Below are positions 3,584 through 62,176 of a DNA stretch of 64,000 bases, piece after piece. Below the pieces are notes generated by a model that saw only the letters and a program-made list of their open reading frames with translations, did not search any database and was not told where the DNA came from. The first letter of the stretch is position 1; each line of letters starts with the position of its first letter. Source of the stretch: Eledone cirrhosa (taxonomy: Eukaryota); assembly GCA_964016885.1 (NCBI GenBank), contig OZ024743.1, positions 267,158,001 to 267,222,000 on the forward strand. Direction: 5' to 3'. The position numbers and the translations under genes were made by a program.

Positions 3584-4127
3584 GTATTTTTCCTCGCGAA
3601 TCAGTTATTTCGTTGCTACGGATCCTGCGGCTGAATTACCGGTCGCTATCTTCAATTTGCAAAGCCCTTTAAACTGTATGTTATTACTCTGAGGTCATAT
3701 ACCTTGTCGAGTGCTTGGCTGCACTTCTGAATGCATTCGTCGGTTTAGCTGCGGCTCGAGCTTCGATATGCTGTACTTCCATTTGTATTACTATCTCCTA
3801 GACCTAATGATTAATTGATTAATTTAATTAGACAATTGTTTAATTATTTATGTTTGTTTAATAACGGTCTGGTTGAGTGCTTAATTGACTTTGTGTACGG
3901 AACCTATTCCATTGCTCATAATTTGAATTTGACGGCCATAAACTGGGGTTAGCTCCCTTTGGAGTAACATGTGCCCTCACAACCGGACTGGCGTCTGAAC
4001 GAAAGCCTGTTGAGAAAGTAAATCCACTGTTCGAAACTTAACTTGCATACACGACAAGCTGATTTTGTTGATTTCGGATTTACAGAAACCTAACTGAGAT
4101 ATTGCAAAATATCGAAGTGATGGTCCA

Positions 4128-4194
<67 letters not shown>

Positions 4195-13083: not shown

Positions 13084-13118
13084 GTTTAAAATAGAGTGGA
13101 AAAGATGGGAAAGACCAC

Positions 13119-15224: not shown

Positions 15225-15442
15225 GTTGTTTTTTTTTGTTTAAAATAAATATTGGGCACAAAACCCCAATAAGCAGTTATTTAACCCCGAAGGGCCAAAT
15301 AACGGGCAGAAAGACCCCTCTCACGAGGAGGAGGGTGTTTTTGTCTACAAGTTCTTTAAAGTTTTAAACAATTTACAATTGTTATAGTGTTCAAAATTTA
15401 CAATACCTTACAGAGCCGAGCCTCCGTCAACCATAGCATTCA

Positions 15443-18400: not shown

Positions 18401-19418
18401 GGGTCTTGTGAAGGTCGGATGGTTCGACCTCCATGGTTGGTGGGGTTTCTTTTGGGAACCCCTTTAACATTCTTAATGTGGGTTTCACATTCGGGGTTCC
18501 CACGTCTTAAGGAAAGCTCTCTCGAATTTCTTTGAAGGAATTGAGTGACATTCGGACCAGAACCAAATCTTCTGGCTCGAAAAATGTGCTCATTTCAAAA
18601 ATCTCCCCTCTGTTTGAATGTCCTCGCTTCGTGCTAAAAGGGCCATCAGTTTATCGTTGGCCCTTCTGACAAGCACGAAGTTTTTAACATTTGTTTGGTG
18701 TGGTTTTATTTGTTTTCGTTTTGGTGACTGTGGTGGTGATGGTTTTGGTGGTGTTTTTTCGGGTATGTCTGTGTTTGTTGTAGGTGTGGTTTCTGCAATT
18801 TCAGGTATTTGTGTGTTTATTTGTACTTGTATTTGTTTAGGTTGTTTGCGTTTCGGGGATTGTGGAGGTGGTGTCGATGTTGCTGTTGGTGATGATGTTA
18901 TTGGGGAAGTGTTTGCGTTAGTGGTGTCTGTATGTTTTGTTGTGTATGTTTTTGTGTTTTGTTGGGGCTATTTTTTTTGGTGAGTTTTCTGTTTTTTCGC
19001 ACTTTTGGGTATTCCTTCATCTTCGCTGCTGGAAGACAAAGGGTCTGTGGCTGTGAGTGTCTCTGTATCTGTGCGTGCGTTTATTGTTTTGTCTATGTGT
19101 ATAATTGTGGTGGTGGGGGGGGGGGTAGGTGGAGTGGGAGAGCTTTCCTCGTTTTGCCCTTGGATTGGTTTTGGTGTTGGTGGTGACCCTGCTGTTTTTG
19201 ATGTTGGTGTCCGTGTTTTTGTTGGTGTTGTTTTTGGTAGTGGTGGTGGTGCAGCTTTCCGTGCTGACACTGACGTTGGCATCAAAGGAGGTTTGCGACC
19301 CCCTGCATTTTAGCGCTGAGGGCAGGGGGCTTGCAGAATCGTTGCTTACCCGCAGACGAAGCAGCGTGGCCTACTTCCGTCAATGATTAGTTGGATTGTT
19401 GTCCCGTCCTGCAGGCGG
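15443..19418 (-). mobile_element. Tx1/L1-clade LINE copy 2: 5'-truncated, internally deleted, chimeric
   Basis: AATAAA plus (ATT)n tail at 15443-15480. ORF2 start at 18357 (GSLNVRGL). Knuckle remnant RPRCFVCG at ~19345-19372. RT motifs LDQSKAFD are joined directly to the C-terminal region at ~16530. Confidence 0.85.
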
Positions 19419-20048
19419 AATAATAATAATAATAATAATAATTGTTTCTACTTTTGGCACAAGGCCAGCAATTATCCAGTATATTACTGGTACTTTATTT
19501 TATCGACCCCACAAGAATGAAAGGCAAAGTTAAACCCGGCGGGATTTGAACTCAGGCCTTAAAGGGCCGTAACTCTTTGCTACAAAGCATGGCGTCCGCT
19601 CCTCTACCGATACTGCCAATCCAATAATGATTTATAATATAGGCACAAGCCCAGTAATTTGGGGGGGGAGACGTGGAAATGTGATTGAATCGACACCAGT
19701 ACGTTACTGGTGCTTTATTTTATCGACCCCATAAGGATGAAAGGCAAAGTTAACCTCCGCGGGATGTGAAATCAGAGGGTAAAGTCCGTAACGCTATGTC
19801 AAAAAGCATGGCATCCGGCCCTCTACCGATATTGCCAATCCACTAATAATAGTAATAAATGTTTCTACTTTTGGCACAAGGCCAGCTATTACCCCAGTGT
19901 ATTACTGGAACTTTATTTTATCGACCCCTTAAGGATGAAAGTCCAAGTTAACCTCGGCGGGATTTGAACTCAGAATGGCAAGGGCCGTAACTCTATGCGT
20001 CAAAGCATGGCATCAGACCCTCTACCGATACTGCCAATCCACCGCCCT
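19419..20048 (-). mobile_element. Three head-to-tail tRNA-derived SINE copies
   Basis: Units ~19419-19623, ~19635-19845 and ~19846-20048. A-box TGGCAGTATCGG, B-box GAGTTCAAATCC, body GCCTTTCATCCT...GGGTCGATAAAATAAAGTACCAG, ATT tails. Same family as 62821-63010. Confidence 0.85.
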
Positions 20049-20052
20049 GTGG

Positions 20053-22250
20053 ATAATAGTAATAATGCTTTCTTTATTAACCACAAGAGTTGACATAAAG
20101 TATAAAATTAAGAACAGCACAGTACAGGACGATACAAATGGGGATTTCTGCGTCTAAAGAAAAACCAATAATAAAGGAAATAACAAAGAAAAAGAAATAA
20201 AAGAAAATTTCCCAACGGGGGGGGGGGGCGGACTTCAGAGTGTCACTCGTGGAGAAAGCCCGTTTAAAAAGCCATGATAATTACAACAAAAGCATGTGCC
20301 CTCTCCCAGTTTTCCACTTCCAATCTACAGGCACATACTCAGAGCAGGCCCATTCACTCGGGCCATGCTTGCCTCTATCACCCATATTTCAACAAATTGC
20401 TGGGAAGAGATCATTTGCCTCTCCACTGAGATTTTCCTTTTCAAACGAAATATGAAAAAATTAATCAGGGCATCACCGAAGAGGTACGTGCTCGTCTTTA
20501 GCCCTTTCAAACGCGTCCACCTCACGACCTCTTTCGCCATGGCAACAGGCAGATAAAAGCTGCCTGCCCTTCTAGGCTAAAGGAAGGCCGTGCCGCAATC
20601 CTCACGATGGAATCAGCTGATAGCCAGATCCGTCCTACATGTGACAGCAGGTGTTCGGCATAAACCCACAAGTCATCAGTGGTCGGACACTGGACGGGTG
20701 TGTGCAGGACGGTTTCGCCACCCTGTGCGCATCGGATAGGCACGGTTGAGGACACTTCCAAACCTGTAGAGTTTGTCCCGAACTGGCAATTCTCCCCGGT
20801 AACACTGCCAGGCTAGGGATTTCTGGAAGTTATCCATGGGTCCCGACCGTAAAATTCTTCCGAAGAGATTGGCTAGTTGATTTTCGTCGACGCCCAGAGT
20901 TTCCCCAAGGGCGTCGTCGCTCTTTCGCTCCACTAATACTCTATATAACGCCAAGATGGAGTTTCGACCGATTACATCTCCCGATTGGTCGAGAGTTGTG
21001 AGCGCCTGAAGACATTCCAATCTCCAAATGTTCCCTCTCACTCTTCACTTGACTCAGGACTGCAGCTCCGTTAAGGAGACGAACTGGGGGAAAACGCCTC
21101 TTGCAAACGGTGACCACACCTGATCACCGTCGAGGAATAGTTGGCAATGCCGTAGCCTGGGAGCATGTCTGCGCATCATCACCCACGGCATGCCCAGCCT
21201 TCCACGTAGCGTGTGTTGACAGGAAATGCAACGCCTCACCCTTTGCGCGTCCCTTCCACAAAACGCGAAAGAGAAAACGCTCCAACGCAGTCAGCCGAGG
21301 GTTAGGAAATGTAAGACGGTCAGACGGTTCTAGATGACGGACGCGATGTACGCGTTTGCCACCTCCACACGACCTTTCAAGGATAGTTTCCTCTCGGGCC
21401 CATTTGTGGGTGAGAGAGGCTACTCTGCTCGTCATCTCCTCCCAGTTTTTGATCGTCTGGAAGTCCGGACCGAACAAGACTGTTAATGATTCAACCGGTC
21501 CGTCCATCCGGGACCTGACGACTCTGTTGGACGACATGGACCTGCCCCTCAAGGTGGAGAGCCAAAGACCCACCGACTTGTCCGGGTTAATCATTGCTCC
21601 TGTCACTGCCTCGTATTCTCTTAGTATAGTGCCGATCGCCTCGATGTGTTTGGCACTCGACGCCACTACGTTAACGTTGTCGGCATATGCTGACGGGGTT
21701 CACCGCATCCCAGTTCGCACAAGACGCCCCTCAAGGTCTTCAGTTTGTGAAGTAATGGCACAAGGGTCGGTCAATACGTACGACAGGAACGAATGTGTAC
21801 ATCATTTGTGGACCGAGCGTATGATGTTGAATGGTTCCGAAAGGTGACCGTTCACTCTCACCACAGAGCAGATGTCGCTGTGCATGACAGCGATCCAGCC
21901 TCCGAAGACGGGCCCAAAGCTGGCTGCCCTCAGGACCGCCGACAGATAACAATGGTCGACCCTATCGAAAGCTTTCGACTGATCAAAATTGATCAATGAT
22001 CCTCTGATGCCAAGTTCGTTAGCTACCCTCTCCACGATGTATCGCATGAAGTGGAGGTTGTCGTGGATCGAGCTCTGTGGAATGGCGCATATCCGTGCCT
22101 CTCCCACAAGACCACCGACGTCAAGTGCCAACCTCTTTCCTTGCACCTTGGCCAAAATCTTGAACTCTGCGTTAAGCAGAGTTATGGACCTGAAATGATC
22201 TGTGTCCCCCTCGTTGGGGTCCTTTCTAAGCAACGCTACGTCTCCTCGAC
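20053..22250 (-). mobile_element. Tx1/L1-clade LINE copy 3, 5'-truncated within RT, degenerate
   Basis: ALLRKDP, FRSITLLN, FDQSKAFDRVDH, SAYAD. 3'UTR and AATAAAGAAAGC(ATT) tail like copy 2. Confidence 0.85.
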
Positions 22251-22432
22251 TTAAAATGTAATGGGAATACGAAGAAAGCAAGAACGGGGGCGGGTTCCTC
22301 ATCAATTGTCTATTAAGGGTCTCGGATATCTCTCAATCAGGCGAGGGGGTGAAGGTGAGAGGGAGAAAGGGAGAGGGCGAAAGTGGAAAAAGAGTAGATA
22401 GGGAGAAAGGGAGAGGAACAAGGGTGAGAGTG

Positions 22433-22515
<83 letters not shown>

Positions 22516-22611
22516 TAAGGCTAAATAGTGAGTCGCGTTACTTTGGAGTTTCACATGTTTATCACAGGGTTATGAGACAAGAACATATATATATATGTAT
22601 ATATATATATA

Positions 22612-23230
22612 TTTCGTTTCTGAATTTGTTTAGCAAGATTCTTTATCTGATAACGTGTGTTGAAACCGATATTGTTATAATTTGGGAGGGTCATGTTGCC
22701 AATAAGAAACACACGCACCAGAGATTTCACTCCAATTTATTATAAATTTATTTATTTAATTAAATTTCCGGTTGGTAGGTTCCACAACCGGACGGTTGTT
22801 CATATATGGTCAAAGTTCTTTGGTCACACATTCGGTGACGTCTTCAGTGACTGGGGATTATTTTATTTGTTTTGTGCCTCTCATTTGTTCTGTCCTTCGC
22901 CATCTTGTTTTTGTGTGTGTTCTTTGCTTAGTTTGCGCACGTGTTACATCCGGGTGTATGTGTGTGTTTCTATTTTTGAACACTGTCGAGAGCTTCAAGA
23001 TAAAAAAGAATCATCAATACTCCACCAACATGCTAAAATAGAATATAAAGGCAAATTAGAGAACATAGAAATAAAAATAAAATCTACATACAGAAAAGAG
23101 GCAATGCTTAGACAAATCACAGAGGCAATAAACATAAATGAACTCCAACCAAAATTAAATAGAAAACATGAATGGAATAGCAACATCACAACTTACAATT
23201 AAGGACAAAATGAAAACACACACACACAGA
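22612..23230. mobile_element. PLE family B terminal fragment with 5' inversion
   Basis: 22612-22975 (minus) is 3'UTR, HHR-like motif and ORF start (ATGACCCTCCCAAAT). 22978-23202 (plus) is the GIY-YIG C-terminus RQITEAININELQPKLNRKHEW. Confidence 0.8.
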
Positions 23231-24535: not shown

Positions 24536-25231
24536 ACTATACGAACATGCTAGACAACAACATGACGGTAACATAGACAACATAGAAATTAGAATAATAT
24601 CTAAATATAGAAATGATCCAGCAGATAGGCAAATCAGAGAGGCCAGTGAAATAGAAATTAGAAGACCAAGGCTAAACAGAAATAATGAATGGAATAACAA
24701 CAACACCCAAACAAACAACACTGACCTAAGAGAAGTATCAATAAGTAAATAAAATAAAATAAATAAATAAATAAATACATACACAAGCACAATAACAGCA
24801 AGCACATACACACACACTAGTCACCCATCACACAGCAAACAAAACGCTATACACACACGCAAACGCATGCGCAAAGAAGACAAAATAAAATAAACAAACA
24901 AGCAAATAAATAAATAAATAAATATATAGACAGACTGAATAAAAATGGCGTAGACATACACTACAACAGGAGGAAAATATAGCACCACTGACGATGTTGC
25001 AGATGTGCAACGAAAGATTTATGATAAACTATATATATGTGTTTGTGTCTATATTGTATCTGTATTATTTTTGACCGCCGGTCAGTCAATGGCAACATTG
25101 AGGACCGAGTATATTAGATTACCGATATAAGAGACACAGAAGTGAGAAGCGAAAATCAACCAAACAGTGAGTGTGTTCTGTTATTAATTCTGGCAATATT
25201 ACACAAATATGACCCTCCCCAAGTATAACTA
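24536..25231 (+). mobile_element. Solo pseudo-LTR of PLE family A (older copy) in (TA)n
   Basis: Homologous to 49790-50521: GIY-YIG C-terminus, 3'UTR, HHR motif at ~24984-25024, ending in ATGACCCTCCCCAAGTATAAC. Confidence 0.9.
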
Positions 25232-25233
25232 TA

Positions 25234-25274
<41 letters not shown>

Positions 25275-28077: not shown

Positions 28078-29255
28078 AATAAACACATGAAATTATCACA
28101 GGGGATAATTTGTAACATTTTTGAAAGGTATCTATATTTGAAGTTCTAGTTAAACTTTAATTAGTTACCTACCTAGCTGTGTGTGCTTACACACTTTATA
28201 AATTATCCCATGTGATTGTTTTATGTGTTTATTTTAGATATATGTGCATGCCAATCACTTTCTAGTTGATATAAAATGCTCGGATCTATTCATTGGAATC
28301 TTTGATCTTATTCTACGGTGGATATGGCGCATGTCTCGGACATGACTCCCTTAATTACATTTTGGATATATACACGGTCCCTTGACTGTAGAGCTAACTC
28401 AGTTGAAAGGACTAGGCTGCTATTCCTATCTGTCGATAGTCCTATTAACACCACCGGGATAACGATGACACGATGTGTGTAGTTTTAGAAATGCAACACG
28501 TGCGACGTGTCATTCGCAGATTTGCATTTGATGTGTAAACACAGATAGTTAAATCTTCTCCCTTGGTGAAGATTCGTGAATTTGACTACTGTGAGTTTAC
28601 GGATTAATGGTGAAATATATTTCTTTAATGAAATATATACAAGGAAGATTAATCATTTTTAAAAGGTATCTATATTTGAAGTTTAGTTAAAGTTTAATTA
28701 GTTACCTACCTAACTGTGTGCGCTTACATACTTTACAAATAATCCCCTGTGATTGTTTCATGTGTTTATTTTAGATATATATATATATGCCAATCAATTT
28801 CTAGTTGATATAAAATGCTCGGATCTATTCATTGGTATCTTTGAGCTTATTCTACGGTGGATATGGCGCATGTCTCGGATATGACTCCCTTGAATAAATT
28901 TTGGATATATACACGGTCCCGTGATTGTAGAGCTAACTCAGTTGAAAAGACTCGGCTGATATTTCTAGCTGTCTATAATCCTATTCACGCCACTGGGGTG
29001 ACGCTGGCACCATGTCTGTAGTTTTAGAAATGCAACACGTGCGATGGGTCATTCGCAGATTTGCATTTGTTGTGTAAACACAGGTAGTTAAATCTTCTCC
29101 CTTGCTGTAGATCCGAGATTTAACTACTGGCATATATATATGCTAATTAATTTCTAGTTGATATAAAATGCTCGAATCTTTTCATTGGAATCTTTGAGCT
29201 TATTCTACGGTGGATATGGCGCATGTCTCCGATATGACTCCCTTAATTTAATTTT

Positions 29256-29262
<7 letters not shown>
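28078..29262 (+). repeat. ~540-bp tandem units (two, plus a partial third) with a short inverted leader
   Basis: 28117 onward repeats at 28655, with a partial at 29140-29260. 28078-28115 is inverted relative to 28733-28771. Ends in (TA)n. Confidence 0.75.
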
Positions 29263-29354
<92 letters not shown>

Positions 29355-29493
29355 ACATATTAAAGGAAAACGTGTGGTTTACGTTAAACGTTTCGCAGAC
29401 CAAGATACCTAATTTGCTACAGATAAGTAAAAGTATTCGCTGAAGAAACATAAGGAGTTTGTATAAAACGGTAACGTAATAATCATGATATTA

Positions 29494-30925
29494 TCTATAT
29501 ATATAAAACTGTGGTTGTCTGTCTGTCTATCGATTTTTGGCACACATCTCCTCTTAGAATCTCTCACGGAATTGCACCGAAAGTGCTACACTTGTACATT
29601 GAGCCCTAGCGAAGACATCGGAAAAAAAAAATTTCAAATTGACCCACCCTATGTGACGAAATCGAATATAATGTATTGATTTTTGAGCGTAAGTGATCAG
29701 TTATTTCCCTTTGTTCTGTTTACATTGAGCGTCTTACGTAAAAAATTACAATACACGAACAGTTGTCGAGCCAGCCAAATATTGAACTGCAAAATTCATC
29801 AGTTCGATCACTAAGCTTCCGTTTTGCTTCATTTCCATTTAAAAGCATTTTAAAACAATATTTTTACTTGAAAACAAGTCTATTTAAAGACTACGTAAAA
29901 CAAGCAAATATTTCGTCGTTAGGCGTGCAGACAGACAGTCGTGCAGACAGACAGTCGTGCAGAGAGGTGATATAGGCGTGCAGACAGACAGTCGTGCAGA
30001 GAGGGGATATAGGCGTGCAGACAGACATAACTGATAATTTGGTTACGCTAATGTTTTTCTCTGCGTTGCAGTGTTTACATTTTCGATCTTTGTTAATAAA
30101 TAACCAGTGCAGTTTCTATCCCCAGCATCCTCTTTTGTTATAACATTCGGGTTATCGTTATGTTTTCTTAACTTCATAAGGCATATTGTTGGTTGAGGGA
30201 ATATTAATCAAAAACACCACATGCAAGTCTGCACAGTAGACACTACAGTTTTTAAGCCAAGAAAGAAACTTAACATTGTAACTTTAACACAGCTACTGAG
30301 TGCACAATACACAAACAGTTGTCGAGCCAGCAAAATATTGACCTGCAAAATTCATCAGTTCGAACACTAAGCTTCCGTTTTGCTTCATTTCCATTTAAAA
30401 GCATTTTAAAACAATATTTTTACTTGAAAACAAGTCTATTTAAAGACTACGTAAAACAAGCAAATATTTCGTCGTTAGGCGTGCAGACAGACAGTCGTGC
30501 AGACAGACAGTCGTGCAGAGAGGTGATATATGCGTGCAGACAGACAGTCGTGCAGAGAGGTGATATAGGCGTGCAGACAGACAGTCGTGCAGAGAGGTGA
30601 TATAGGCGTGCAGACAGACATAACTGATAATTTGGTTACGCTAATGTTTTTCTCTGCGTTGCAGTGTTTAAATTTTCGATCTTTGTTAATAAATAACCAG
30701 TGCAGTTTTTATCCCCAGCATCCTCTTTTGTTATAACATTCGGGTTATCGTTATGTTTTCTTAACTTCATAAGGCATATTGTTGGTTGAGGGAATATTAA
30801 TCAAAAACACCACATGCAAGTCTGCACAGTAGACACTACAGTTTTTAAGCCAAGAAAGAAACTTAACATTGTAACTTTAACACAGCTACTGAGCGACCCC
30901 GAGCAACGCCAGGCTTTACTGCTAG
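29494..30925 (+). mobile_element. Non-autonomous Helitron, copy 1, with internal duplication
   Basis: 5' TCTATATATATAAAA after A. 3' CCCGAGCAACGCCAGG hairpin then CTAG. Internal unit 29749-30302 is repeated at 30303-30893. Confidence 0.85.
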
Positions 30926-31878
30926 TCTATATATATAAAACTGTGGTTGTCTGTCTGTCTATCGATTTTTGGCACACACCTCCTCTTAGAATCTCTCACG
31001 GAATTGCACCGAAATTGCTATACTTGTACATTGAGCCCTAACGAAGACATCGGAAAAAAAAATACTTCAAATTGACTCACCCTATCTGACGAAATCGAAT
31101 ATAATGTATCGATTTTTGAGCGTAAGTTATCAGTTATTTCCCTTTGTTCTGTTTACATTGAGCGTCTTACGTAAAAAATTACGCTGGCTTTCTCAGCGTT
31201 TAAAATGACATTAACACAATACACGAACAGACAGTTGTCGAGCCAGCAAAATATTGACCTGCAAAATTCATCAGTTCGAACACTAAGCTTCCGTTTTGCT
31301 TCATTTCCATTTAAAAGCATTTTAAAACAATATTTTTACTTGAAAACAAGTCTATTTAAAGACTACGTAAAACAAGCAAATATTTCGTCGTTAGGCGGGC
31401 AGACAGACAGTCGTGCAGACAGACAGTCGTGCAGAGAGGTGATATAGGCGTGCAGACAGACAGTCGTGCAGAGAGGTGATATAGGCGTGCAGACAGACAG
31501 TCGTGCAGAGTGGTGATATAGGCGTGCAGACAGACAGTCGTGCAGAGAGGTGATATAGGCGTGCAGACAGACATAACTGATAATTTGGTTACGCTAATGT
31601 TTTTCTCTGCGTTGCAGTGTTTACATTTTCGATCTTTGTTAATAAATAACCAGTGCAGTTTCTATCCCCAGCATCCTCTTTTGTTATAACATTCGGGTTA
31701 TCGTTATGTTTTCTTAACTTCATAAGGCATATTGTTGGTTGAGGGAATATTAATCAAAAACACCACATGCAAGTCTGCACAGTAGACACTACAGTTTTTA
31801 AGCCAAGAAAGAAACTTAACATTGTAACTTTAACACAGCTACTGAGAGACCCCGAGCAACGCCGGGCTTTACTGCTAG
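30926..31878 (+). mobile_element. Non-autonomous Helitron, copy 2, head-to-tail with copy 1
   Basis: CTAG|TC junction at 30925/30926. 3' CCCGAGCAACGCCGGG hairpin, then CTAG followed by T. Confidence 0.9.
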
Positions 31879-41540: not shown

Positions 41541-41546
<6 letters not shown>

Positions 41547-42899
41547 GAGGGTCATGTTGCCAATAAGAAACACACGCACCAGCAGCTTTCACTTCAATTT
41601 ATTATAAATTAAATTTATAAATTTAGGAATTTATAAATTTCCGGTTAGTTGGTTGGTTCCACAACCAGGCGATTGTTCATATATTGTCAAAGTTCTTTCG
41701 TCACACATTATGTGACCTCTTCAGTGACTCGGGACTCTTTTCTGTTTTTTGTGCCTCTCCTTTGTTCTGTCCTACGCCATCTTGTTTTTGTGTGTGTTGT
41801 GTGCTTAGTTTGCGCATGTGTTACATCCGGGTGTCTGTGTGTGTTTATATTTGTTTATTTATTTGTTTATTTACATGTTACTGGTTGGTTGTTTGTTCTA
41901 TGTGTGTGTGTGTTTTTATTTCGTCTTTAATTGTAAGTTGTGATGTTGCTGTTCCATTCATGTTTTCTATTTAATTTTGGTTGGAGTTCATTTATGTTTA
42001 TTGCCTCTGTGATTTGTCTAAACATTGCGTCTTTTCTGTGTGTAGATTCTATTTTTACTTCTATGTTCTCTAATTTACCATTCTGTTCTATTTTAGCATG
42101 TTGGTGGAGTGCAGATGATTCCTTACTATCTTGAAACTCACGACAGTGCTTCATTTATGCGTTCCCCTATACTACTGTCTCACCTATGTACAATATATTC
42201 TTAAGAATATAGTGTACATAGGTGAGGAGCTCGTAGTATAGGGGAACGGATAAATGAACACTGGCGAGAGCTTCAAGATAGTAAAGCTTCAATATTTTAA
42301 ATAAAAATAAAATCTACACATAGAAAAGACGCAACATTTAGACAAATCATAGAGGCAATAAACATAAATGAACTCCAGCCAAAATTAAATAGAAAACATG
42401 AATGGAACAGCAACATCAAAACTTACAATTAAAGACAAAATAAAAACATACAATTAAGGACAAAATGAAAACACACACACACATAGAACAAACAACCAAC
42501 CAGTAACATAGTAAATACACAAATAAATAAACAAATATAAACACACACATACACCCGGATGTAACACATGCGCAAACTAAGCACACAACACACACAAAAA
42601 CAAGTTGACGTAGGACAGAACAAAGGAGAGGCACAAAAAACAAAGAAAATAGTCCCGAGTCACTGAAGAGGTCACATAATGTGTGACGAAAGAACTTTGA
42701 CAATATATGAACAATCACCTGGTTGTGGAACCAACCTACCATCCGGAAATTTATAAATTCCTAAATTTATAAATTTAATTTATAATAAATTGAAGTGAAA
42801 CATCTGGTACGTGTGTTTCTTATTGGCAACATGACCCTCCCAAAGCATAAAAATATCGGTTTCAACACACCTTTTCAGATAAAGAATCTTGCTAAACAA

Positions 42900-42902
<3 letters not shown>
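41541..42902. mobile_element. Fold-back pair of PLE family B pseudo-LTRs
   Basis: Minus arm 41541-42200 and plus arm 42205-42902, with the centre of symmetry at TTAA 42201-42204. Each arm has YIGE.../GIY-YIG C-terminus, UTR, HHR and ORF start ([23 protein letters not shown]). Confidence 0.9.
42659..42701 (+). ncRNA. Minimal type I hammerhead, PLE family B (mirror copy at 41686-41728, minus)
   Basis: GTCA-CTGAAGA-G-GTCACA taatg TGTGAC-GAAA-GAAC-TT-TGAC. Confidence 0.75.
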
Positions 42903-42959
<57 letters not shown>

Positions 42960-43001
42960 TCTATATTTCTATGTATCTATCTATATATCTATCTATACAT
43001 G

Positions 43002-43044
<43 letters not shown>

Positions 43045-43569
43045 ATATTTGGGGAGGGTCATATTTGCGTAATATTGCCAGAATTAATAACAGAACACAC
43101 TCACTGTTTGGTTGGTTTTCGCTTCTCGCTGTCTTTTATATATATATATCTGCGATCTAACTTACTCGGTCCTCAATGTTGCCATTGACTGACCGGCGGT
43201 CAAAAATAATACAGATACAATATAGACAAACACATATATATATAGTTTACATAATTTACATAAATCTTTCGTTGCACATCTGCAACATCGTCAGTGGTGT
43301 TATATTCATTGTTCCTCCTGTTGTGTTGTATGTCTACGCCATTTTTTTTTTTGTTCAGTCTGTCTATATATTTATTTATTTATTTGCTTGTTTGTTTATC
43401 TTATTTTATTTTGTCTTCTTTGCGCATGCGTTTGCGTGTGTGTATAGTGTTATGTGTGATGTGTGACTAGTGTGTATAGTGTTGTGTCTGCTGGGTGACT
43501 AGTGTGTGTTTATGTGCTTGTGTATGTATTTATTTATCTTATTTTATTTAATTTAATTTACTTATTTAT

Positions 43570-46500
43570 TTATACTTCTCTTAGGTCAGTGTTGTTTGTT
43601 TGGGTGTTGTTGTTGTTCCACTCATTCTTTCTGTTTAGCTTTGGTCTTCTAATTTCTATTTCACTGGCCTCTCTGATTTGCCTATCTGCTGGGTCATTCC
43701 TATGTTTAGATATTATTCTAATTTCTATGTTGTCTATGTTACCGTCATGTTGTTGTCTAGCATGTTCGTATAGTACTGACCCGTTTTTTCGTCCTTTTAG
43801 TTCCCCCCAGTGTTGGTCTATCCTTTCACCTATGCTACGAGCTGTCTCACCTATGTATGTTGTTGTCGTGTTTCTGCAAGTACCCTCTGTACATCTTATG
43901 CTATAGACTACGTTTCTAGTTTTACAGTTTATCCGGGGGTTCACCTTACATATGATACATTTCCTATTGGTACAGTGGGTTTTCTTAAAAGGGTAGGTTT
44001 TGCTGATCAGGGATTTTATGGTGGTTCCTGGCTTTTCTACCACCTTTATTTTTAAGTGGGTCTTTCTCAGGGCCTTTCTACACTGGTTAGCCAATTTCCC
44101 TCCAGGGGTGGCGTCCACAAACATGACACTCTGATATCTCTGGTTGTCGTACCCTGATGTGGCCTTCCCTATCTTATGTCTAGCCCTATCTAAGCTATTC
44201 CATGATTTGCTCCTGTATAGTGGGCAAATTCCTTTCATATCCAGTTCTATGAGGGTCTTATACTTTTCCATGGCTCCTTCGTATACTCTGACTCTGTCTC
44301 TTTGGTTGTAGCCAGAGAACTGCATGCGGTTGATGAAGTGTTGGATGTGTCCTTCCATTTCTGTTGGGTCGCACATGCTGGACACATTCTTCATCACTCG
44401 TACCAAATCTGCGATCAGAATATTAAACTTAGCACTACTGGACATTGCTGAGTTTTTGAGTATCAGGTATTTGGAGGCCATGGGTTTAGCATAGTGTGAG
44501 TGGAGAATTTGGGCTCTCTCGTCTATAGTGTTAATCCAGAGTTCTGTGTCTAATACAGGTAGTCTATTGTTAGGGTGTTTGGAAGGGAAGTCTATAGTTA
44601 CAGTTATACTCTGGTGTATGGAATTAGCTATCTGCTGGATGCTTTCCATCGTGCTACGTTCTAAATCAAACTTGTTAGTGCTCTCTAGTGGGGGTGTTCT
44701 TATAGCTATATTGATATCGTCTACATAACGAGAGTACATGATGAGGTCTATGGAGCTTTCATTAAGGAGATCTTTAAGTCTCCTTTCCCACCATACCATG
44801 AAAAGGTTGGCAACATCACCAGCTATGCTGACGCCGATGGCTGCTCCCTCATTTTGGGTGTAGATTTTCTCATTGAACTTAAATATGTGGCCCTTTAGGG
44901 TAGTTTTGATACTAGCCCCTATTGCATGTGCGACCATTTTTCTTACATGATCAGTGTTTTGGGGGGTCCGTATAGCTTTGGTCCACCCAATCCACCTTCC
45001 TATGGGAGTCTTTTTAGCCATTGAGGTTATGGTGGGGGGTCTACCTCTTATAGGTCTACTAGGGCAGAAACATCTAAGGTCATGGCTGTCTAGGTAGTCA
45101 GTGTCGTAGGTAAGTCTAAGTAGGAGGCCCAGTTCGTCTGTGTCGACGTCACAGAACTCCACCTCACTCTCAATGATCATCTCCACACATCTTTTCACAG
45201 CAAAATCAATGTTAATGGATGGGTACAGTGACACCACATCCATGCTGCCTATTATGCAGTTGGATAGGCTCCTGTTTTTGTTGCACTCACTGATTCTGCT
45301 GAGGAGGTCCTCTGTACTTTCACATACATCTGGGGACATCTTGATTATGGGGCGTATAACCATTGAGAGGAAGTAGGAGATCCTGTAGTTGCTAGCTATA
45401 TTAGCTCCGCATACGGGTCTTGTTGGTGGTCCTGTTGTCGGGTCGTCGACTGTCTTGTGGTCTTTGCGGAGCCCATACAAGGGTGGTATGCCATTGTTAG
45501 ACGCCTGGAAGTTGTTGGCAGTGCGTCTGCTTGGCTTTAGGATGTCAGTCCACATGATCATGTGAGCGTTGAGGATTTTTTCTCTCCCATCGTGTGTTAG
45601 TTGTGCAACTTCGCTCGTGTTGGTGATGTGGGGTTGCATTGCCTCGATGTAGTTCGGCATGCTATCTATTGACATCCTACCAGACTTATCTGTGGGTAGA
45701 CACACTACCTCACCATCCCTTGTGCGCTGCTTGAGGCTAACCAAGCCTTCTACAGGTTTTATCCCAAGTTGTTGGGCCTCTGGTCTGCTCTGTCTCATAG
45801 TGTACCTGTCTACTACTTGTCTAATCTTATTTCTAGCTATGGTGAACTGTGCCTCCGTCTCGTCATCTATTTGCTGTGGTATGCAAACTCTTTTATTAAA
45901 GGGTAACCTCGTAGGATAGATATTACCCATCTTATATGTTTTGTCAGCTGGGTTGAAAAATAGTTTCTCTAAGGGGTTGTCGTTATTTCTATCGTCATAG
46001 TTGTGTGTGTTGCTATTATTGTTATCATGGTGGTTGTTGTTGTTTCTATCATTAGCATTAATATTATTATTGTTATGATTGCTAGATGTATTGTTGTTTA
46101 CTTCACAGTTATTGTTGTTGTTGTTACTGCTATTTCTACCATTGTGGTTGTTACTATTATTATGTTTCTTGTTTTTGTTGATGTTGCTACATGTACTATT
46201 TCCATTATTACCACTGTGGTTATTGTTGTTGTTGTTGTTCGTATTGTTACCGTTATTACTACTGTGGTCACTGTTGCTGTGTCTGTGGTTAACGTTTCTA
46301 TTATTATTATTATTGTGGTTGTTGTTGTTCTGTCTATCGCTAGTATTATTACCATTATCACTATTTCTCACTTTCCTGCCATTGTTATGGTTATGGCTGT
46401 TATTTCTATACCCAGAGTTATTGTTTATATTACTACTACCGTTATTATTGTTGTTGTTGTTTACCTTTGCATTCCAACGTATTTTTGTGAAACACTTTTC

Positions 46501-47202
46501 CAGCTCCGTTTTGCATTCCATAGGATTAATCTTTTTGTAGATGGCAAATTTTGGTGGTAACTTTAGGATTTGTTGTTCTTGTTCACTGATTAAAGTGTTC
46601 CCATAGATATTTACTGTGTGGTCATTGGTAAATTCTTCCGGTAGTTTTACATCACTCATACGGATGTTGTCGATGTTATCTGGGTATTTTTGAGAATATT
46701 CGATTTTCCTTTCTTGTAGTTTTTTCTTATTCATCCATTCTAATTTCTTCTTGAAATGCCTACAGCATTCGTTTTGAGCATATTTCGTTTCGCGTCGGAT
46801 GACGCTCATGAAGTCATCTCTCTCGTTTGCTGTGATGAGATTTCGGATTTCCTTACCGTTGATGCGTTTTTGTCTGTAGAGTGCGTTGACTTTTGTGTAT
46901 GTTGTTCTTTTCATATTAACTGTTATTGTGTGTTCTAGCCGTTCAGCTTGTGTTTTGTTCAATAATAAATTATTTACTTGTTTTGATATGTTTGTTGTGT
47001 ATGTTTTGGAGGAAACACAGTGTTTTAAGAAGCGGATTTGTTCTGTTGTTATTGTAGTTTTTATATAACAGAAAACAGTGTCTTTCAATAACCTTTCAGC
47101 TTGGCACAAGCTAATGCCATAGCGGCGATGAATTAGTTTTGCGAGGTTTTTTATATGAAATCGTGTGTCGAAACAGATATTGTTATATTTGGGGAGGGTC
47201 AT
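43570..47202 (-). CDS. PLE polyprotein: N-terminal domain, Asn-rich tract, reverse transcriptase, Cys linker, GIY-YIG endonuclease (1210 aa, uninterrupted)
   Basis: LKLPPKFA, PTDKSG, LYGLRKDHK, RPV, GSMDVVSLYPS, GAAIG, RYVDD, LPVLD, HYAKP, CTNRKCIIC, VVYSIRC...YIGETAR...H...H...EA...LN. Confidence 0.93.
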   Translation of the reverse strand: MTLPKYNNICFDTRFHIKNLAKLIHRRYGISLCQAERLLKDTVFCYIKTTITTEQIRFLKHCVSSKTYTTNISKQVNNLLLNKTQAERLEHTITVNMKRTTYTKVNALYRQKRINGKEIRNLITANERDDFMSVIRRETKYAQNECCRHFKKKLEWMNKKKLQERKIEYSQKYPDNIDNIRMSDVKLPEEFTNDHTVNIYGNTLISEQEQQILKLPPKFAIYKKINPMECKTELEKCFTKIRWNAKVNNNNNNNGSSNINNNSGYRNNSHNHNNGRKVRNSDNGNNTSDRQNNNNHNNNNNRNVNHRHSNSDHSSNNGNNTNNNNNNNHSGNNGNSTCSNINKNKKHNNSNNHNGRNSSNNNNNNCEVNNNTSSNHNNNNINANDRNNNNHHDNNNSNTHNYDDRNNDNPLEKLFFNPADKTYKMGNIYPTRLPFNKRVCIPQQIDDETEAQFTIARNKIRQVVDRYTMRQSRPEAQQLGIKPVEGLVSLKQRTRDGEVVCLPTDKSGRMSIDSMPNYIEAMQPHITNTSEVAQLTHDGREKILNAHMIMWTDILKPSRRTANNFQASNNGIPPLYGLRKDHKTVDDPTTGPPTRPVCGANIASNYRISYFLSMVIRPIIKMSPDVCESTEDLLSRISECNKNRSLSNCIIGSMDVVSLYPSINIDFAVKRCVEMIIESEVEFCDVDTDELGLLLRLTYDTDYLDSHDLRCFCPSRPIRGRPPTITSMAKKTPIGRWIGWTKAIRTPQNTDHVRKMVAHAIGASIKTTLKGHIFKFNEKIYTQNEGAAIGVSIAGDVANLFMVWWERRLKDLLNESSIDLIMYSRYVDDINIAIRTPPLESTNKFDLERSTMESIQQIANSIHQSITVTIDFPSKHPNNRLPVLDTELWINTIDERAQILHSHYAKPMASKYLILKNSAMSSSAKFNILIADLVRVMKNVSSMCDPTEMEGHIQHFINRMQFSGYNQRDRVRVYEGAMEKYKTLIELDMKGICPLYRSKSWNSLDRARHKIGKATSGYDNQRYQSVMFVDATPGGKLANQCRKALRKTHLKIKVVEKPGTTIKSLISKTYPFKKTHCTNRKCIICKVNPRINCKTRNVVYSIRCTEGTCRNTTTTYIGETARSIGERIDQHWGELKGRKNGSVLYEHARQQHDGNIDNIEIRIISKHRNDPADRQIREASEIEIRRPKLNRKNEWNNNNTQTNNTDLREV

Positions 47203-47977
47203 ATTTGCGTAATATTGCCAGAATTAATAACAGAACACACTCACTGTTTGGTTGGTTTTCGCTTCTCGCTGTCTTTTATATATATATATCTGCGATCTAA
47301 CTTACTCGGTCCTCAATGTTGCCATTGACTGACCGGCGGTCAAAAATAATACAGATACAATATAGACAAACACATATATATATAGTTTACATAATTTACA
47401 TAAATCTTTCGTTGCACATCTGCAACATCGTCAGTGGTGTTATATTCATTGTTCCTCCTGTTGTGTTGTATGTCTACGCCATTTTTTTTTGTTCAGTCTG
47501 TCTATATATTTATTTATTTATTTGCTTGTTTGTTTATCTTATTTTATTTTGTCTTCTTTGCGCATGCGTTTGCGTGTGTGTATAGTGTTATGTGTGATGT
47601 GTGACTAGTGTGTATAGTGTTGTGTCTGCTGGGTGACTAGTGTGTGTTTATGTGCTTGTGTATGTATTTATTTATCTTATTTTATTTAATTTAATTTACT
47701 TATTTATTTATACTTCTCTTAGGTCAGTGTTGTTTGTTTGGGTGTTGTTGTTGTTCCACTCATTCTTTCTGTTTAGCTTTGGTCTTCTAATTTCTATTTC
47801 ACTGGCCTCTCTGATTTGCCTATCTGCTGGGTCATTCCTATGTTTAGATATTATTCTAATTTCTATGTTGTCTATGTTACCGTCATGTTGTTGTCTAGCA
47901 TGTTCGTATAGTACTGACCCGTTTTTTCGTCCTTTTAGTTCCCCCCAGTGTTGGTCTATCCAGTGTTGGTCTATCCA

Positions 47978-49994
47978 GAGAGAAAAAATCCTCAACGCTC
48001 ACATGATGATGTGGACTGACATCCTAAAGCCAAGCAGACGCACTGCCAACAACTTCTAGGCGTCTAACAATGGCATACCACCCTTGTATGGGCTCCGCAA
48101 AGACCACAAGACAGTCGACGACCCGACAACAGGACCACCAACAAGACCCGTATGCGGAGCTAATATAGCTAGCAACTACAGGATCTCCTACTTCCTCTCA
48201 ATGGTTATACGCCCCATAATCAAGATGTCCCCAGATGTATGTGAAAGTACAGAGGACCTCCTCAGCAGAATCAGTGAGTGCAACAAAAACAGGAGCCTAT
48301 CCAACTGCATAATAGGCAGCATGGATGTGGTGTCACTGTACCCATCCATTAACATTGATTTTGCTGTGAAAAGATGTGTGGAGATGATCATTGAGAGTGA
48401 GGTGGAGTTCTGCGACGTCGACACAGACGAACTGGGCCTCCTACTTAGACTTACCTACGACACTGACTACCTAGACAGCCATGACCTTAGATGTTTCTGC
48501 CCTAGTAGACCTATAAGAGGTAGACCCCCCACCATAACCTCAATGGCTAAAAAGACTCCCATAGGAAGGTGGATTGGGTGGACCAAAGCTATACGGACCC
48601 CCCAAAATACTGATCAGGTAAGAAAAATGGTCGCACATGCAATAGGGGCTAGTATCAAAACTACCCTAAAGGGCCACATATTTAAGTTCAATGAGAAAAT
48701 CTACACCCAAAATGAGGGAGCAGCCATCGGCGTCAGCATAGCTGGTGATGTTGCCAACCTTTTCATGGTATGGTGGGAAAGGAGACTTAAAGATCTCCTT
48801 AATGAAAGCTCCATAGACCTCATCATGTACTCTCGTTATGTAGACGATATCAATATAGCTATAAGAACACCCCCACTAGAGAGCACTAACAAGTTTGATT
48901 TAGAACGTAGCACGATGGAAAGCATCCAGCAGATAGCTAATTCCATACACCAGAGTATAACTGTAACTATAGACTTCCCTTCCAAACACCCTAACAATAG
49001 ACTACCTGTATTAGACACAGAACTCTGGATTAACACTATAGACGAGAGAGCCCAAATTCTCCACTCACACTATGCTAAACCCATGGCCTCCAAATACCTG
49101 ATACTCAAAAACTCAGCAATGTCCAGTAGTGCTAAGTTTAATATTCTGATCGCAGATTTGGTACGAGTGATGAAGAATGTGTCCAGCATGTGCGACCCAA
49201 CAGAAATGGAAGGACACATCCAACACTTCATCAACCGCATGCAGTTCTCTGGCTACAACCAAAGAGACAGAGTCAGAGTATACGAAGGAGCCATGGAAAA
49301 GTATAAGACCCTCATAGAACTGGACATGAAAGGAATTTGCCCACTATACAGGAGCAAATCATGGAATAGCTTAGATAGGGCTAGACATAAGATAGGGAAG
49401 GCCACATCATGGTACGACAACCAGAGATATCAGAGTGTCATGTTTGTGGACGCCACCCCTGGAGGGAAATTGGCTAACCAGTGTAGAAAGGCCCTGAGAA
49501 AGACCCACTTAAAAATAAAGGTGGTAGAAAAGCCAGGAACCACCATAAAATCCCTGATCAGCAAAACCTACCCTTTTAAGAAAACCCACTGTACCAATAG
49601 GAAATGTATCATATGTAAGGTGAACCCCCGGATAAACTGTAAAACTAGAAACGTAGTCTATAGCATAAGATGTACAGAGGGTACTTGCAGAAACACGACA
49701 ACAACATACATAGGTGAGACAGCTCGTAGCATAGGTGAAAGGATAGACCAACACTGGGGGGAACTAAAAGGACGAAAAAACGGGTCAGTACTATACGAAC
49801 ATGCTAGACAACAACATGACGGTAACATAGACAACATAGAAATTAGAATAATATCTAAACATAGGAATGACCCAGCAGATAGGCAAATCAGAGAGGCCAG
49901 TGAAATAGAAATTAGAAGACCAAAGCTAAACAGAAAGAATGAGTGGAACAACAACAACACCCAAACAAACAACACTGACCTAAGAGAAGTATAA
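47978..49994 (+). pseudogene. 5'-truncated inverted copy of the PLE ORF (RT + GIY-YIG)
   Basis: Nearly identical to the C-terminal ~670 aa of the 1210-aa ORF. It lacks the N-terminus and has CAG>TAG near 48057. Confidence 0.9.
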
Positions 49995-50264
49995 ATAAAT
50001 AAGTAAATTAAATTAAATAAAATAAGATAAATAAATACATACACAAGCACATAAACACACACTAGTCACCCAGCAGACACAACACTATACACACTAGTCA
50101 CACATCACACATAACACTATACACACACGCAAACGCATGCGCAAAGAAGACAAAATAAAATAAGATAAACAAACAAGCAAATAAATAAATAAATATATAG
50201 ACAGACTGAACAAAAAAAAAATGGCGTAGACATACAACACAACAGGAGGAACAATGAATATAAC

Positions 50265-50305
50265 ACCACTGACGATGTTGCAGATGTGCAACGAAAGATT
50301 TATGT
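50265..50305 (+). ncRNA. Hammerhead motif in the family A pLTR (copies at 43259-43297 and 47399-47437 minus, ~24984-25024 plus)
   Basis: CA-CTGACGA-T-GTTGCA gatg TGCAAC-GAAA-GATT-TA-TG. Core and stem II are intact, stem I is very short. Confidence 0.65.
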
Positions 50306-50564
50306 AAATTATGTAAACTATATATATATGTGTTTGTCTATATTGTATCTGTATTATTTTTGACCGCCGGTCAGTCAATGGCAACATTGAGGACCGAGTA
50401 AGTTAGATCGCAGATATATATATATAAAAGACAGCGAGAAGCGAAAACCAACCAAACAGTGAGTGTGTTCTGTTATTAATTCTGGCAATATTACGCAAAT
50501 ATGACCCTCCCCAAATATAACAATATCTGTTTCGACACACGATTTCATATAAAAAACCTCGCAA

Positions 50565-50600
<36 letters not shown>

Positions 50601-50630
50601 TCTATATTTCTATGTATCTATCTATATAGG

Positions 50631-50695
<65 letters not shown>

Positions 50696-50730
50696 TCTAT
50701 ATATTTCTATCTATCTATCCATCATTTATG

Positions 50731-50759
<29 letters not shown>

Positions 50760-50767
<8 letters not shown>

Positions 50768-52890
50768 AATAGAATATCTAACATATCTTCTCATAAAAAC
50801 ATATTTGATGCTAACGCCAATTACTATAATAACGCACTTTCTAAAGCCGGCTATCCAGATAAAATCAAATATAATAAAGAAACAAATTCTAGAAAAACTT
50901 ACAGTAGAATAATTAATCATAACCATTCCAATAATTTTAATAAAAGACCTATATACAAAAACATAATCTGGTATAATGCTCCTTTCTCCATCTCTATTAA
51001 TAACAATATTCCTAAATTATTTTTTAGTGCCTTAAATAAATGCTTCCCTCCCTCACATATCTATAGTAAAATATTTAACAAACACACCATCAAATTTTCG
51101 TATTCTACATCCTCCAATATTTCCAACATCATCTCTAAACACAACAACAAAATATTAAATACTAAATCTCTTCCTTCCAATATTGAATTTCATAATAACA
51201 GTAATAGTACTCCCGACGTCATTGTAAACCCTGGGCTAACTTCTGTAAACCCAAATACAACGTCAAACACAACTTCGCTAAATGTTCATAATGCAACTCT
51301 AAATCAAGAAACTATTATTCCTATTATTCCTATCGCAAACAACTTCTCCAATCCAATTCCTTCTATAGATAACACTAGATCACTCATTAATAATCTCTCT
51401 AATTGCAACTGCCGCATTAAAAATAAATGTCCTCTCAACAACCATTGCCTCGATAAAAACTTAATTTATGAATGTAAAATTATAACTAGCACCAATTCCT
51501 TCACCTATTTTGGCTCCACTTCCACCTCTTTTAAAGCTCGTCTCTATAATCATCATTCATCTTTCAAATACAAACTTAAAAGAACTAACACTGCTCTCTC
51601 AGAACTCATATGGTCCTTAAAAGACAAAAACATTAAATATACCATCTTTTGAACAGCTCTCTATCTAAAATCTGTAATCTCTGCCTAAATGAAAAATTTA
51701 CCATTATCTCTAACCTAGATTCTATAATAAATAGACGCTCAGATTTGTTTTCTATCTGCCTGCATAAATTCCATAGAACTTTTCACAAAGTATACAGTTA
51801 ATATTCAATTCTTTATCAATTTAGAATCTTTTCTCAAAGGCACATATACATACACCTCTTTAAAATATACCCATCTACCTTACTTTAAAGGGCATTATAC
51901 ACTCTATAATACTCGTTTACTCATTACCCTCATTCTATCTTCTCGTAAAATCATAGCATTTGTTTTTGTCATTTGAATATTCATCCGCAATCATTATTAT
52001 TTTTTCTCTCTATCATAAATCTTTTTAATCTCAATTTCATCCTTAATTTATTATTATTTTTTTCTCCCTATCAACCAACTCATTATTAATACATATTAAC
52101 TCTTTATTCGCACATATCATATACAAACTTTAACTTCAGATTATTTTTCTCAAATCCTTCTACACACAAACCTTAACAATTTTCTCTTCGCTAATTTTGA
52201 AATTGCCACAATACATACATTTCTTCTTTTGACGTTAGAATATTCACCCACAATTATTATTTTTTTCTCTCTATCTTCATACATAATTTCCCTTCGTTAA
52301 TTTTCAAATTCCTTTAATTTATACATTATCTTCCAACGGTTCCCAACCTCTCTATATTAAAACAATATATCTTTTTCTCAGTTATAAAAACTATCTCTTT
52401 CTCTCTATCACCCATCTCTCCCTCTCCACCTTCACTCTCATCTTCTCCCCCCTTTTTTTCATCCTTTCCACCCCCACCCCCTCCCTAAATAAAATATTTT
52501 TCCTCGCACATATCCTCCCTTCGTTAATTTTCAAAATTTTTAATTTATACAGTATCTTCCAACGGTTTTCAACCTCTCTATGTAAAAAATATATCTCCTC
52601 TCAGTTATAAAAACTATCTCTTTCTCTCTATCACCCATCTCTCCCTCTCATCTCCTCCCCTTTCATCCTTCCCCCCCTCTCTAAATAAAATATTTTTCCC
52701 AATATCACGCATCAATCTAAAACCATTTTTCATATGTTGATTTAAAACTGCACTATCCACAAGTGTTTTTTAGCCTTCATATCATGTTCTCCTGTTTTAT
52801 CTGATGAAAACACAAATATTATTGCTTGATGATGTTTGTTTTTGAAATGCGCATAATAAAATATATGGAACTCCTTTAACCATCTTTTGA
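50760..52890 (+). pseudogene. 5'-truncated PLE of a third lineage (RT thumb, linker, GIY-YIG, long 3'UTR)
   Basis: YYNNALSKAGY, IIWYNAPFS, KIFNKHTIKFSYS, CNCRIKNKCPLNNHCLDKNLIY, YFGSTSTSFKAR, TALSELIW. After TGA 51650 another frame gives CNLCLNEK...NRRSDLFSICLH. UTR duplication at 52290-52700. Confidence 0.85.
52793..52863 (+). ncRNA. Intact minimal type I hammerhead ribozyme
   Basis: TGTTTTAT-CTGATGA-AAACACAAATATT...GATGTTTGTTTT-GAAA-TGCGCA (palindrome)-TA-ATAAAATA. Confidence 0.85.
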
Positions 52891-54128: not shown

Positions 54129-54185
<57 letters not shown>

Positions 54186-54193
<8 letters not shown>

Positions 54194-54441
54194 ATACTTT
54201 GGGAGGGTCATGTTGCCAATAAGAAACACACGCATCAGTTGCTTCCACTTCAATTTATTATAATAAATTTATAAATTTAGGGATTTATAAATTTCCGGTT
54301 GGTTGGTTGGTTCTACAACCAGATGGTTGTTTATATATTGTCAAAAGTTCTTTCGTCACACATTCTGTGACCTCTTCAGTGACTGGGGATTCTTTTCTTT
54401 GTTTATGTACCTCTCCTTTGTTCTGTCCTACGCCATCTTGT
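54186..54441 (-). mobile_element. PLE family B terminal fragment in (TA)n
   Basis: Homologous to 41541-41785. HHR motif at ~54340-54383, ending ATGACCCTCCCAAAGTATAACAATA. Confidence 0.85.

Positions 54442-59399: not shown

Positions 59400-62176
<2,777 letters not shown>

Follow-up and report, generated by a model that had tools for sequence, protein, structure and literature searches.

A two-armed Penelope-like retrotransposon insertion in Eledone cirrhosa and its likely place in an apparently unnamed insert-bearing lineage

Introduction

When a retrotransposon copy carries kilobases of its own sequence in inverted orientation at one end, is the locus an exception or the ordinary outcome of the way in which its family inserts, and to which lineage does its protein belong? 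These questions are raised by one Penelope-like element (PLE) insertion in Eledone cirrhosa (assembly GCA_964016885.1, contig OZ024743.1), contained in a stretch of 64,000 nt that was analysed as a whole (the window) and within which all coordinates below are positions. A first-pass annotation, made from the letters alone, had described a potentially active, very young PLE with a giant inverted duplication and had assigned it to the Naiad clade. PLEs are the sister group of telomerase.

The element is a young, high-copy Penelope-like retrotransposon, and the locus itself is an ordinary PLE insertion. We hold with good confidence the joint reading that this is a genuine single insertion, that two-strand priming on one template is its likely origin, and that its protein likely belongs to an unnamed lineage with an insert of ~68 aa. 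Observation establishes the anatomy of the insertion, targeting to (TA)n, the fixed position of 3' ends, a single tailed end per two-armed insertion, the sharing of variants by both arms, and the group's own branch in the protein tree. Interest attaches to the insert-bearing lineage, which appears to be unnamed, and to the evidence across the family for priming of a single template from two sides.

Anatomy of the insertion

The full-length unit (43037..47202, minus strand) measures 4166 bp from ATG to 3' end. Its open reading frame (ORF) of 1210 aa (43570..47202, minus) contains no stop and encodes an N-terminal domain, an Asn-rich insert, a reverse transcriptase (RT) of telomerase-like type, a thumb, and a GIY-YIG endonuclease in C-terminal position; it runs uninterrupted between direct pseudo-long terminal repeats (pLTRs), as the first-pass annotation had it. 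The 3' pLTR (43037..43823, minus) consists of the ORF end plus a 533-nt 3' untranslated region and forms the untailed end, situated in (TA)n, while the 5' pLTR (47177..47961, minus) is a 5'-truncated tandem copy that gives the first 26 nt of the ORF. The ATG comes from these final 26 nt of the pLTR, which is why the repeat period measures 4140 bp and not 4166 bp. At 785 and 787 bp, the direct pLTRs differ solely in the length of one poly-A.

This long arm (arm A) meets the inverted arm (arm B) at a head-to-head junction (47962..47977) at which 15 nt of the arm-A end recur as a tandem stutter, with 1 further nt. Arm B (47978..50526, plus) is a 5'-truncated copy of 2549 bp covering unit positions 1617-4166, and is followed by a 43-nt tail corresponding to ORF nt 27-69 (50527..50569, plus). 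The tail, of the commonest length in the family, is identical to 47176-47134 and brings the inverted arm to 2592 bp, ending at 50569. Alignment of arm B with 45586-43037 (minus) gives 2550 columns with seven substitutions and one poly-A indel. Given as long arm/inverted arm, the substitutions are I549/M, Q566/stop, H752/Q, and G1017/W, with silent changes at C684, N749, and D988; the earlier description of a 2.6-kb arm with few differences thus holds down to the changes it listed. All seven differences are confined to the 5' 1.4 kb of the overlap, leaving its last 1.1 kb (43037-44092) and the three pLTR copies free of them, for which chance or local homogenisation may account.

To the left, the target flank (42894..43036) comprises (TA)n and a degenerate TA-rich minisatellite unit; to the right (50570..50700) lie (TA)n and more units of the same minisatellite. 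Since both outer ends are in (TA)n of a degenerate minisatellite, a target-site duplication cannot be read.

Two-armed insertions across the family

We searched the genome (3.0 Gb, 1796 contigs), yielding candidate counts that are not copy numbers: 1393 for a 1.3-kb RT query, of which the best 40 were scored and were all ~100% identical, and 996 for a query from the 5' region. All 150 scored protein matches were 99-100% identical, with 31 (this copy included, by hand count) in open frames of 1210-1218 codons; an open 1210-aa frame was found in six of the 10 full units examined, this copy among them. Layout was compared in 37 stretches around the other 38 scored matches, representing 36 separate insertions. 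An inverted arm of at least 150 bp was present in 21 of these 36, with an arm overlap of at least 2 kb in nine, and the arms differed on average by 2.9 per kb in the family versus 2.8 per kb here (3.9 between loci). With an arm in 21 of 36 other insertions and similar divergence between arms, the inversion at our locus is neither rare nor unusually fresh. The view of the giant inverted duplication as something exceptional therefore has to be given up: it is the family norm and a layout described in PMC8557442 and PMC3846280, the Figure 2 legend of PMC8557442 giving the inverted arm with a tail at one end for PLEs generally.

The outer ends of two-armed insertions are both 3' ends of the element, and are fixed. 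Thirty-two of 62 stop at ORF nt 26 (0-nt extension) and most others ~43 or 58-59 nt further, with 59 of 62 running into TA-rich DNA. Among two-ended loci (n = 23), exactly one end is tailed in 22, two in one, and neither in none (p = 3e-6 versus a coin toss). Head-to-head junctions (n = 25) comprise 19 with overlaps of 1-7 nt, to which BLAST ends may add 1-2 nt by chance, one blunt join, and five with inserts. In all 10 loci with at least 2 kb of overlap, the two arms share variants seen at no other locus, and shared derived alleles amount to 1.5 per kb between arms versus 0.15 per kb between loci. C>T plus G>A changes make up four of 22 arm-shared changes versus 39 of 92 arm-private ones (p = 0.049).

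These regularities suggest the following route. The endonuclease would nick both strands of a (TA)n target, and both strands would prime reverse transcription on one template in a single event; from one 3'-OH, copying would begin at the pLTR end (ORF nt 26), and from the other it would begin 43 or 58 nt beyond that point, leaving the tail. As one arm is longer than one unit, a tandem or circular RNA would be needed as template. The two cDNAs would then be joined head to head via overlaps of 1-7 nt or short inserts, after which each arm would decay separately, with the long arm gaining W1017G and other missense changes, and the short arm a stop. Biochemical precedent comes from the anole element Poseidon PAc (Anolis carolinensis), which is predicted to dimerise and in vitro nicks both strands and extends them, with two RNA sites bounding the tail as its starting points (PMC11167929); nicking and extension on two strands, combined with two RT starts close to where the ORF begins, would account for one end having a tail and the other lacking it. 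PAc nonetheless belongs to another clade and starts ~111-118 nt into its ORF with no target homology, unlike the ends in our family, which sit on short TA matches at ORF nt 26, 69, and 84-85.

We also considered whether arm B might be purely a fold-back copy of arm A, and rejected this, as arm B is tailed but the outer end of arm A is not.

The first-pass annotation had also raised a functional reading of the inverted arm, in which a hairpin carried within the element would silence the family or serve as a substrate for A-to-I editing; this reading we regard as improbable. Because the arms stand head to head, only a transcript that crosses the junction would fold back; such a transcript could form a 2.5-kb stem with a 2.4-kb loop, and PLE small RNAs are known in a rotifer (PMC3846280). 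Against this, the sense transcripts of the two arms diverge, and the family has expanded despite its many two-armed loci. For editing, sense-strand A>G changes are in excess neither as singletons (29 A>G versus 20 T>C, p = 0.29 with base content taken into account) nor in the changes common to both arms (five A>G versus one T>C, p = 0.35), counts in genomic copies that reflect reinserted sequences and not the editing of never-reinserted transcripts; at our locus, none of the seven arm differences is A/G on the coding strand, and T/C pairs occur in both directions.

It is very unlikely that the inverted arm reflects a chimeric assembly or an artefact of fold-back reads: four public runs hold no read or contig across 47962-47977 and the very high copy number makes mis-joins possible, but arm A ends at unit position 3380 of the extra tandem copy and arm B starts at 1617, only arm B is tailed, the flanks are not mirror images, an allele common to both arms is found in no other of 37 loci, the arms differ at seven mutation-like sites, and the same pattern recurs at 21 of 36 other insertions. 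We take the structure as real on account of this non-mirror geometry, the shared private allele, and the recurrence across the family. The four runs were also matched to the whole element, where signal was swamped by other copies.

Sequencing runs X4, X6, and X7, labelled as other organisms, contain 43-73% of the family's words, and contigs from X4 and X7 are ~98-99% identical; close relatives, diet, or horizontal transfer may each account for this.

State of this copy

"Very young," as the first-pass annotation put it, is apt for the family, but relative to the majority of 37 loci the long arm of this copy carries 10 derived alleles, compared with a median of six in the other 36 loci, in which the segments compared span 2.4-4.1 kb. 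Six are missense (K90E, G366C, M549I, Q752H, V833A, and W1017G) and four silent. Two of the 10 are also present in the inverted arm; being common to both arms, they were carried in from the template. The Q566 stop is private to the inverted arm. Divergence since insertion comes to ~0.12% per arm.

The suspicion that G in place of W might impair the copy finds good support in comparison. Codon 1017 (44152..44154, minus) lies between thumb and endonuclease; G occurs here in one of 37 loci, namely this copy, and the residue is W in 56 of 57 relatives and Y in the remaining one. Given a private G at a position held by W in 56 of 57 relatives, W1017G likely impairs this copy. Overall, this copy is probably not a master but a weakened product, and its inverted repeat probably arose as a by-product of insertion.

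A protein with an insert at the telomerase IFD position

The catalytic motifs of both enzymatic domains are intact in sequence. In the RT, DKSG (45679..45690, minus) and the catalytic YVDD (44716..44727, minus) are accompanied by MDVVSLYPS with a long insertion behind it, LPPKF, LRKDHK, RPVCG, and GxxIG as motif B. Motif A to motif B (D655-G786; 44845..45240, minus) spans 131 aa, including a conserved insert of ~68 aa; the spacing is 127-138 aa in 57 rows, versus 61-63 aa in five canonical PLEs. Within the insert, E690, R716, and W740 are conserved in 93-96% of 75 rows, and the sole CxC of the protein is found there at aa 711. The GIY-YIG domain (43633..43974, minus; aa 1077-1190, YIG at aa 1116) lies C-terminal to the RT, with a CX4CxxC linker finger, CCHH, YIG, and the R/H/E/N residues intact; C1077-X4-C1082-X2-C1085, C1104, C1109, H1131, and H1147 are kept in 96-100% of 58 rows. 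The features first read from this protein, i.e., MDVxxLYPS, the long insertion after it, and a Cys/His-rich GIY-YIG, are thus all present, with the endonuclease in C-terminal position. Upstream, an Asn-rich low-complexity insert (aa 248-412, 50% N; 45967..46461, minus) is present only in the closest relative besides the query.

The insert occupies the place of the insertion in the fingers domain (IFD) of telomerase reverse transcriptase (TERT) and is of similar length. In the predicted RT structure (pLDDT, a per-residue model score, of 89), TERT gives the best structural matches (Z 14-15, root-mean-square deviation [rmsd] 3.5-4.5, 276-381 aligned). For the insert region alone (model pLDDT 88), the best match is yeast TERT at Z 5.6, rmsd 16.6, and 114 aligned, and a Foldseek search with that region returned no match at E 0.001. 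Taken alone, the region has no clear structural match, so that homology to the telomerase IFD is a candidate relationship.

Placement of the lineage

Of the 69 proteins returned by a homolog search, 59 were strong relatives with 25-68% identity and nine were canonical PLEs; the remaining one was a host-gene chimera. After the strong relatives there is a drop to the canonical PLEs, which score E 1e-23 at best. Octopus vulgaris supplies the closest named protein (68% identity). Matches at E 1e-30 or better comprised 308 clusters. The Atlas gave unnamed clusters and generic PLE clusters. The endonuclease is C-terminal in all 46 relatives in which both motifs were found, with 13 of 59 lacking one motif, and a Pfam scan found no family at E 0.1 for the ORF or a neighbouring fragment. 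In a separate observation, an annotated Octopus vulgaris F-box/leucine-rich-repeat gene model starts with ~150 aa of RT from this lineage at 73% identity, reflecting either mis-annotation or exonisation.

With insert columns dropped, the group forms one branch of length 0.8 in a 48-row RT tree (support 98.8/99), and its branch is again supported (98/94) in a 27-row mixture-model tree; P0137 (motifs not paired) and four short Naiad remnants were left out of the trees, and 21 further rows out of the second. Hydra is weakly the nearest group in both (70.8/84 and 87/80). An RT phylogeny had been proposed earlier as the check on clade, and with references labelled by motif it places the protein on this separate supported branch and not within Naiad. 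The protein thus likely belongs to a well-supported separate group of C-terminal-endonuclease PLEs with a conserved ~68-aa insert at the telomerase IFD position.

How does this group relate to those already named? A single ORF with telomerase-like RT and GIY-YIG, tandem-derived pLTRs, an inverted 5'-truncated copy, and a one-sided tail are all features of endonuclease-containing (EN+) PLEs. Penelope/Poseidon, Neptune, and Nematis have the same single ORF of RT and C-terminal GIY-YIG, pLTRs from partial tandems, CCHH, and microsatellite targeting (PMC8557442, PMC3846280), and in canonical EN+ PLEs, too, a 5'-truncated copy stands inverted at the 5' end, one end is tailed, and the pLTR contains the first codons; in Adineta vaga PLEs, the pLTR holds the first codons and Asn-rich in-frame inserts occur (PMC3846280). 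Relative to canonical EN+ PLEs, our element differs in its ~68-aa insert between motifs A and B, in DKSG, in LPPKF for GxKF, in LRKDHK, RPVCG, and the GxxIG motif B, in finding no Pfam match at E 0.1, and in tails of 43 and 58 nt versus 30-40 nt. Penelope/Poseidon are marked by DKG, by no linker zinc finger, and by no IFD, none of which describes the query; Nematis and Neptune share its CX2-5CxxC linker but combine DKG with no IFD, in contrast to the A-B spacing of 131 aa here versus 61-63 aa. Hydra resembles the query in its C-terminal endonuclease, (TA)n targeting, and KDHK and YPS motifs, but is without IFD and CCHH, has CxCX5C and DKT, and is shorter than 3 kb (PMC8557442). By group, the DK motif is DKG in canonical PLEs, DKA in Naiad, and DKT in Hydra (PMC8557442), although DKS alone is not diagnostic, occurring also in Chlamys and one Hydra-like protein.

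Our leaning, with somewhat better than even confidence, is that the group represents a ninth, deep, and widespread PLE clade with a C-terminal endonuclease and its own conserved ~68-aa fingers insertion at the place of the telomerase IFD, missed by Pfam, and with a very young high-copy family here whose two-armed insertions would document the copying of a single template from both strands of the target, beginning at two fixed points. The published scheme has eight clades, with an IFD in Naiad, Chlamys, and sporadically Coprina, and thus, Coprina aside, solely in clades whose endonuclease is N-terminal (PMC8557442); eight PLE clades are also listed in bioRxiv 10.64898/2026.07.22.740005 (2026). 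Across the openly accessible literature, with Repbase and subscription papers outside the search, we found no description of an insert-bearing C-terminal-endonuclease group. The PMC8557442 supplement, in which long sequences are partly displayed and few canonical references are given, yielded no match for RKDH, RPVC, PPKF, GGAIG, GGPIG, or ALYPS.

It is possible, though rather unlikely, that the group is instead a divergent sub-branch of a named C-terminal clade that gained an insert, with Nematis the most likely; Repbase may already contain it, named generically as a Penelope. In its short linker finger and CCHH, the query is similar to Nematis as shown in Figure S2 of PMC8557442, and sisterhood with Nematis-like rows was not rejected (p = 0.108). 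Nevertheless, the published Nematis rows read DKG, YKTHK, RPIIS, and AMG versus DKSG, LRKDHK, RPVCG, and GxxIG here, an insert is seen in none of the C-terminal clades in Figure S1 of PMC8557442, and a branch length of 0.8 sets the group apart.

The original Naiad assignment fares worst. An insert at the IFD position, (TA)n targeting, and tandem plus inverted insertions are Naiad traits too (PMC8557442), the CX2-5CxxC and CCHH fingers are held in common, and sisterhood of the whole group with Naiad was not rejected (p = 0.128); yet the defining marks of a Naiad are an endonuclease at the N-terminus, DKA, and a CxC domain lying between endonuclease and RT, next to an IFD of ~20 aa (PMC8557442), and the C-terminal endonuclease of the query and its 46 scorable relatives, DKSG in place of DKA, the only CxC within the RT insert, an insert of ~68 aa, and the rejection of nesting (approximately unbiased [AU] test joining query and closest relative to three Naiad remnants, p = 0.0015) render membership next to untenable, with domain order refuting it. 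No sequence likeness was seen between the query insert and the Naiad rows of Figure S1 in PMC8557442. A search for intact Naiad proteins in the database found none, and the Naiad rows of the tree are remnants for that reason. Of four Naiad motif patterns, two gave no match, one gave mostly chance matches (21 versus 54 in the control) including two remnants, and the fourth gave four matches, of which one was used. E. cirrhosa does contain decayed true Naiads (L132 and L134) with N-terminal endonuclease and DKA, separate from the query; 64 of 94 candidate Naiad remnants matched, and all are degenerate.

Several points weigh against the joint reading of one insertion, one template, and a separate lineage. 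(i) The loci compared are the best matches of one query (40 of 1393 candidates) and are skewed to young copies holding RT. (ii) Gene conversion between arms could also give shared variants, as could two RNAs from one source locus; moreover, antisense self-priming, proposed for PLEs in PMC3846280, may be an alternative route to the layout. (iii) No record crosses the junction in the four public runs, which possibly come from other individuals, and several private alleles are absent from the contigs of the best run; other individuals or a polymorphic insertion would fit both results, and neither is proved by them. (iv) Reference groups in the trees were labelled by motif and are not curated, with Naiads represented by decayed remnants, and AU tests did not reject sisterhood of the whole group with Neptune (p = 0.147), in addition to Nematis-like and Naiad rows.

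Implications

A large group of PLEs that combines a C-terminal endonuclease with a longer and conserved insert at the place of the IFD reopens the choice between many losses and many gains of the IFD, and the lineage offers natural proteins with which to probe the role of the insert. Dozens of near-identical two-armed insertions provide material for testing the unexplained tandem, inverted, and tailed layout of PLEs, and the sharing of variants by the two arms, together with the one-tail rule, yields a definite prediction that can be taken to an in vitro assay.

Hammerhead-like cores and neighbouring elements

A putative hammerhead-like core made up of CUGAnGA, stem II, and GAAA, whose stem I is weak, is present three times in the element: at 43267..43294 (minus), in the 5' pLTR at 47407..47434 (minus), and in the inverted arm at 50269..50296 (plus). 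Its self-cleaving activity is a candidate property; an Rfam scan gave no hammerhead match and only chance microRNA-like ones, and a bare core likewise occurs in some Naiads. Twin hairpins at the start, of the sort reported from Hydra-type PLEs, found no support in a single-sequence fold of 47230-47060 (z -0.37).

Further elements lie elsewhere in the window. Immediately to the left, 41546-42893 holds a short non-autonomous two-armed element of a related family, with inverted ends and an endonuclease remnant that has a central palindrome at ~42145-42265; each arm has a cleaner minimal hammerhead (41724, minus; 42663, plus), and its one-sided tail encodes a similar ORF start. At 24536-25269 lies an older 3' fragment, solo and 88% identical, that belongs to the same family or to a sister family and has the same hammerhead-like core at 24988, and more related-family fragments with endonuclease remnants or hammerhead cores are found at 22586-23189 and 54151-54379. 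To the right, 50732-51652 (plus) is a Hydra-clade PLE 3' fragment with a CxCX5C linker, intact Hydra families with 714-codon frames being abundant in the genome, and 60209-61720 (minus) is a 5'-truncated Neptune-like PLE with an open RT frame, in (TA)n. The window also includes three related long interspersed nuclear element copies at 9670-22332 (minus), with remnants of AP-endonuclease and RT and, in one, an upstream ORF region, as well as tandem repeats at 28224-31745 with periods of ~540-950 bp and 88-99% identity.

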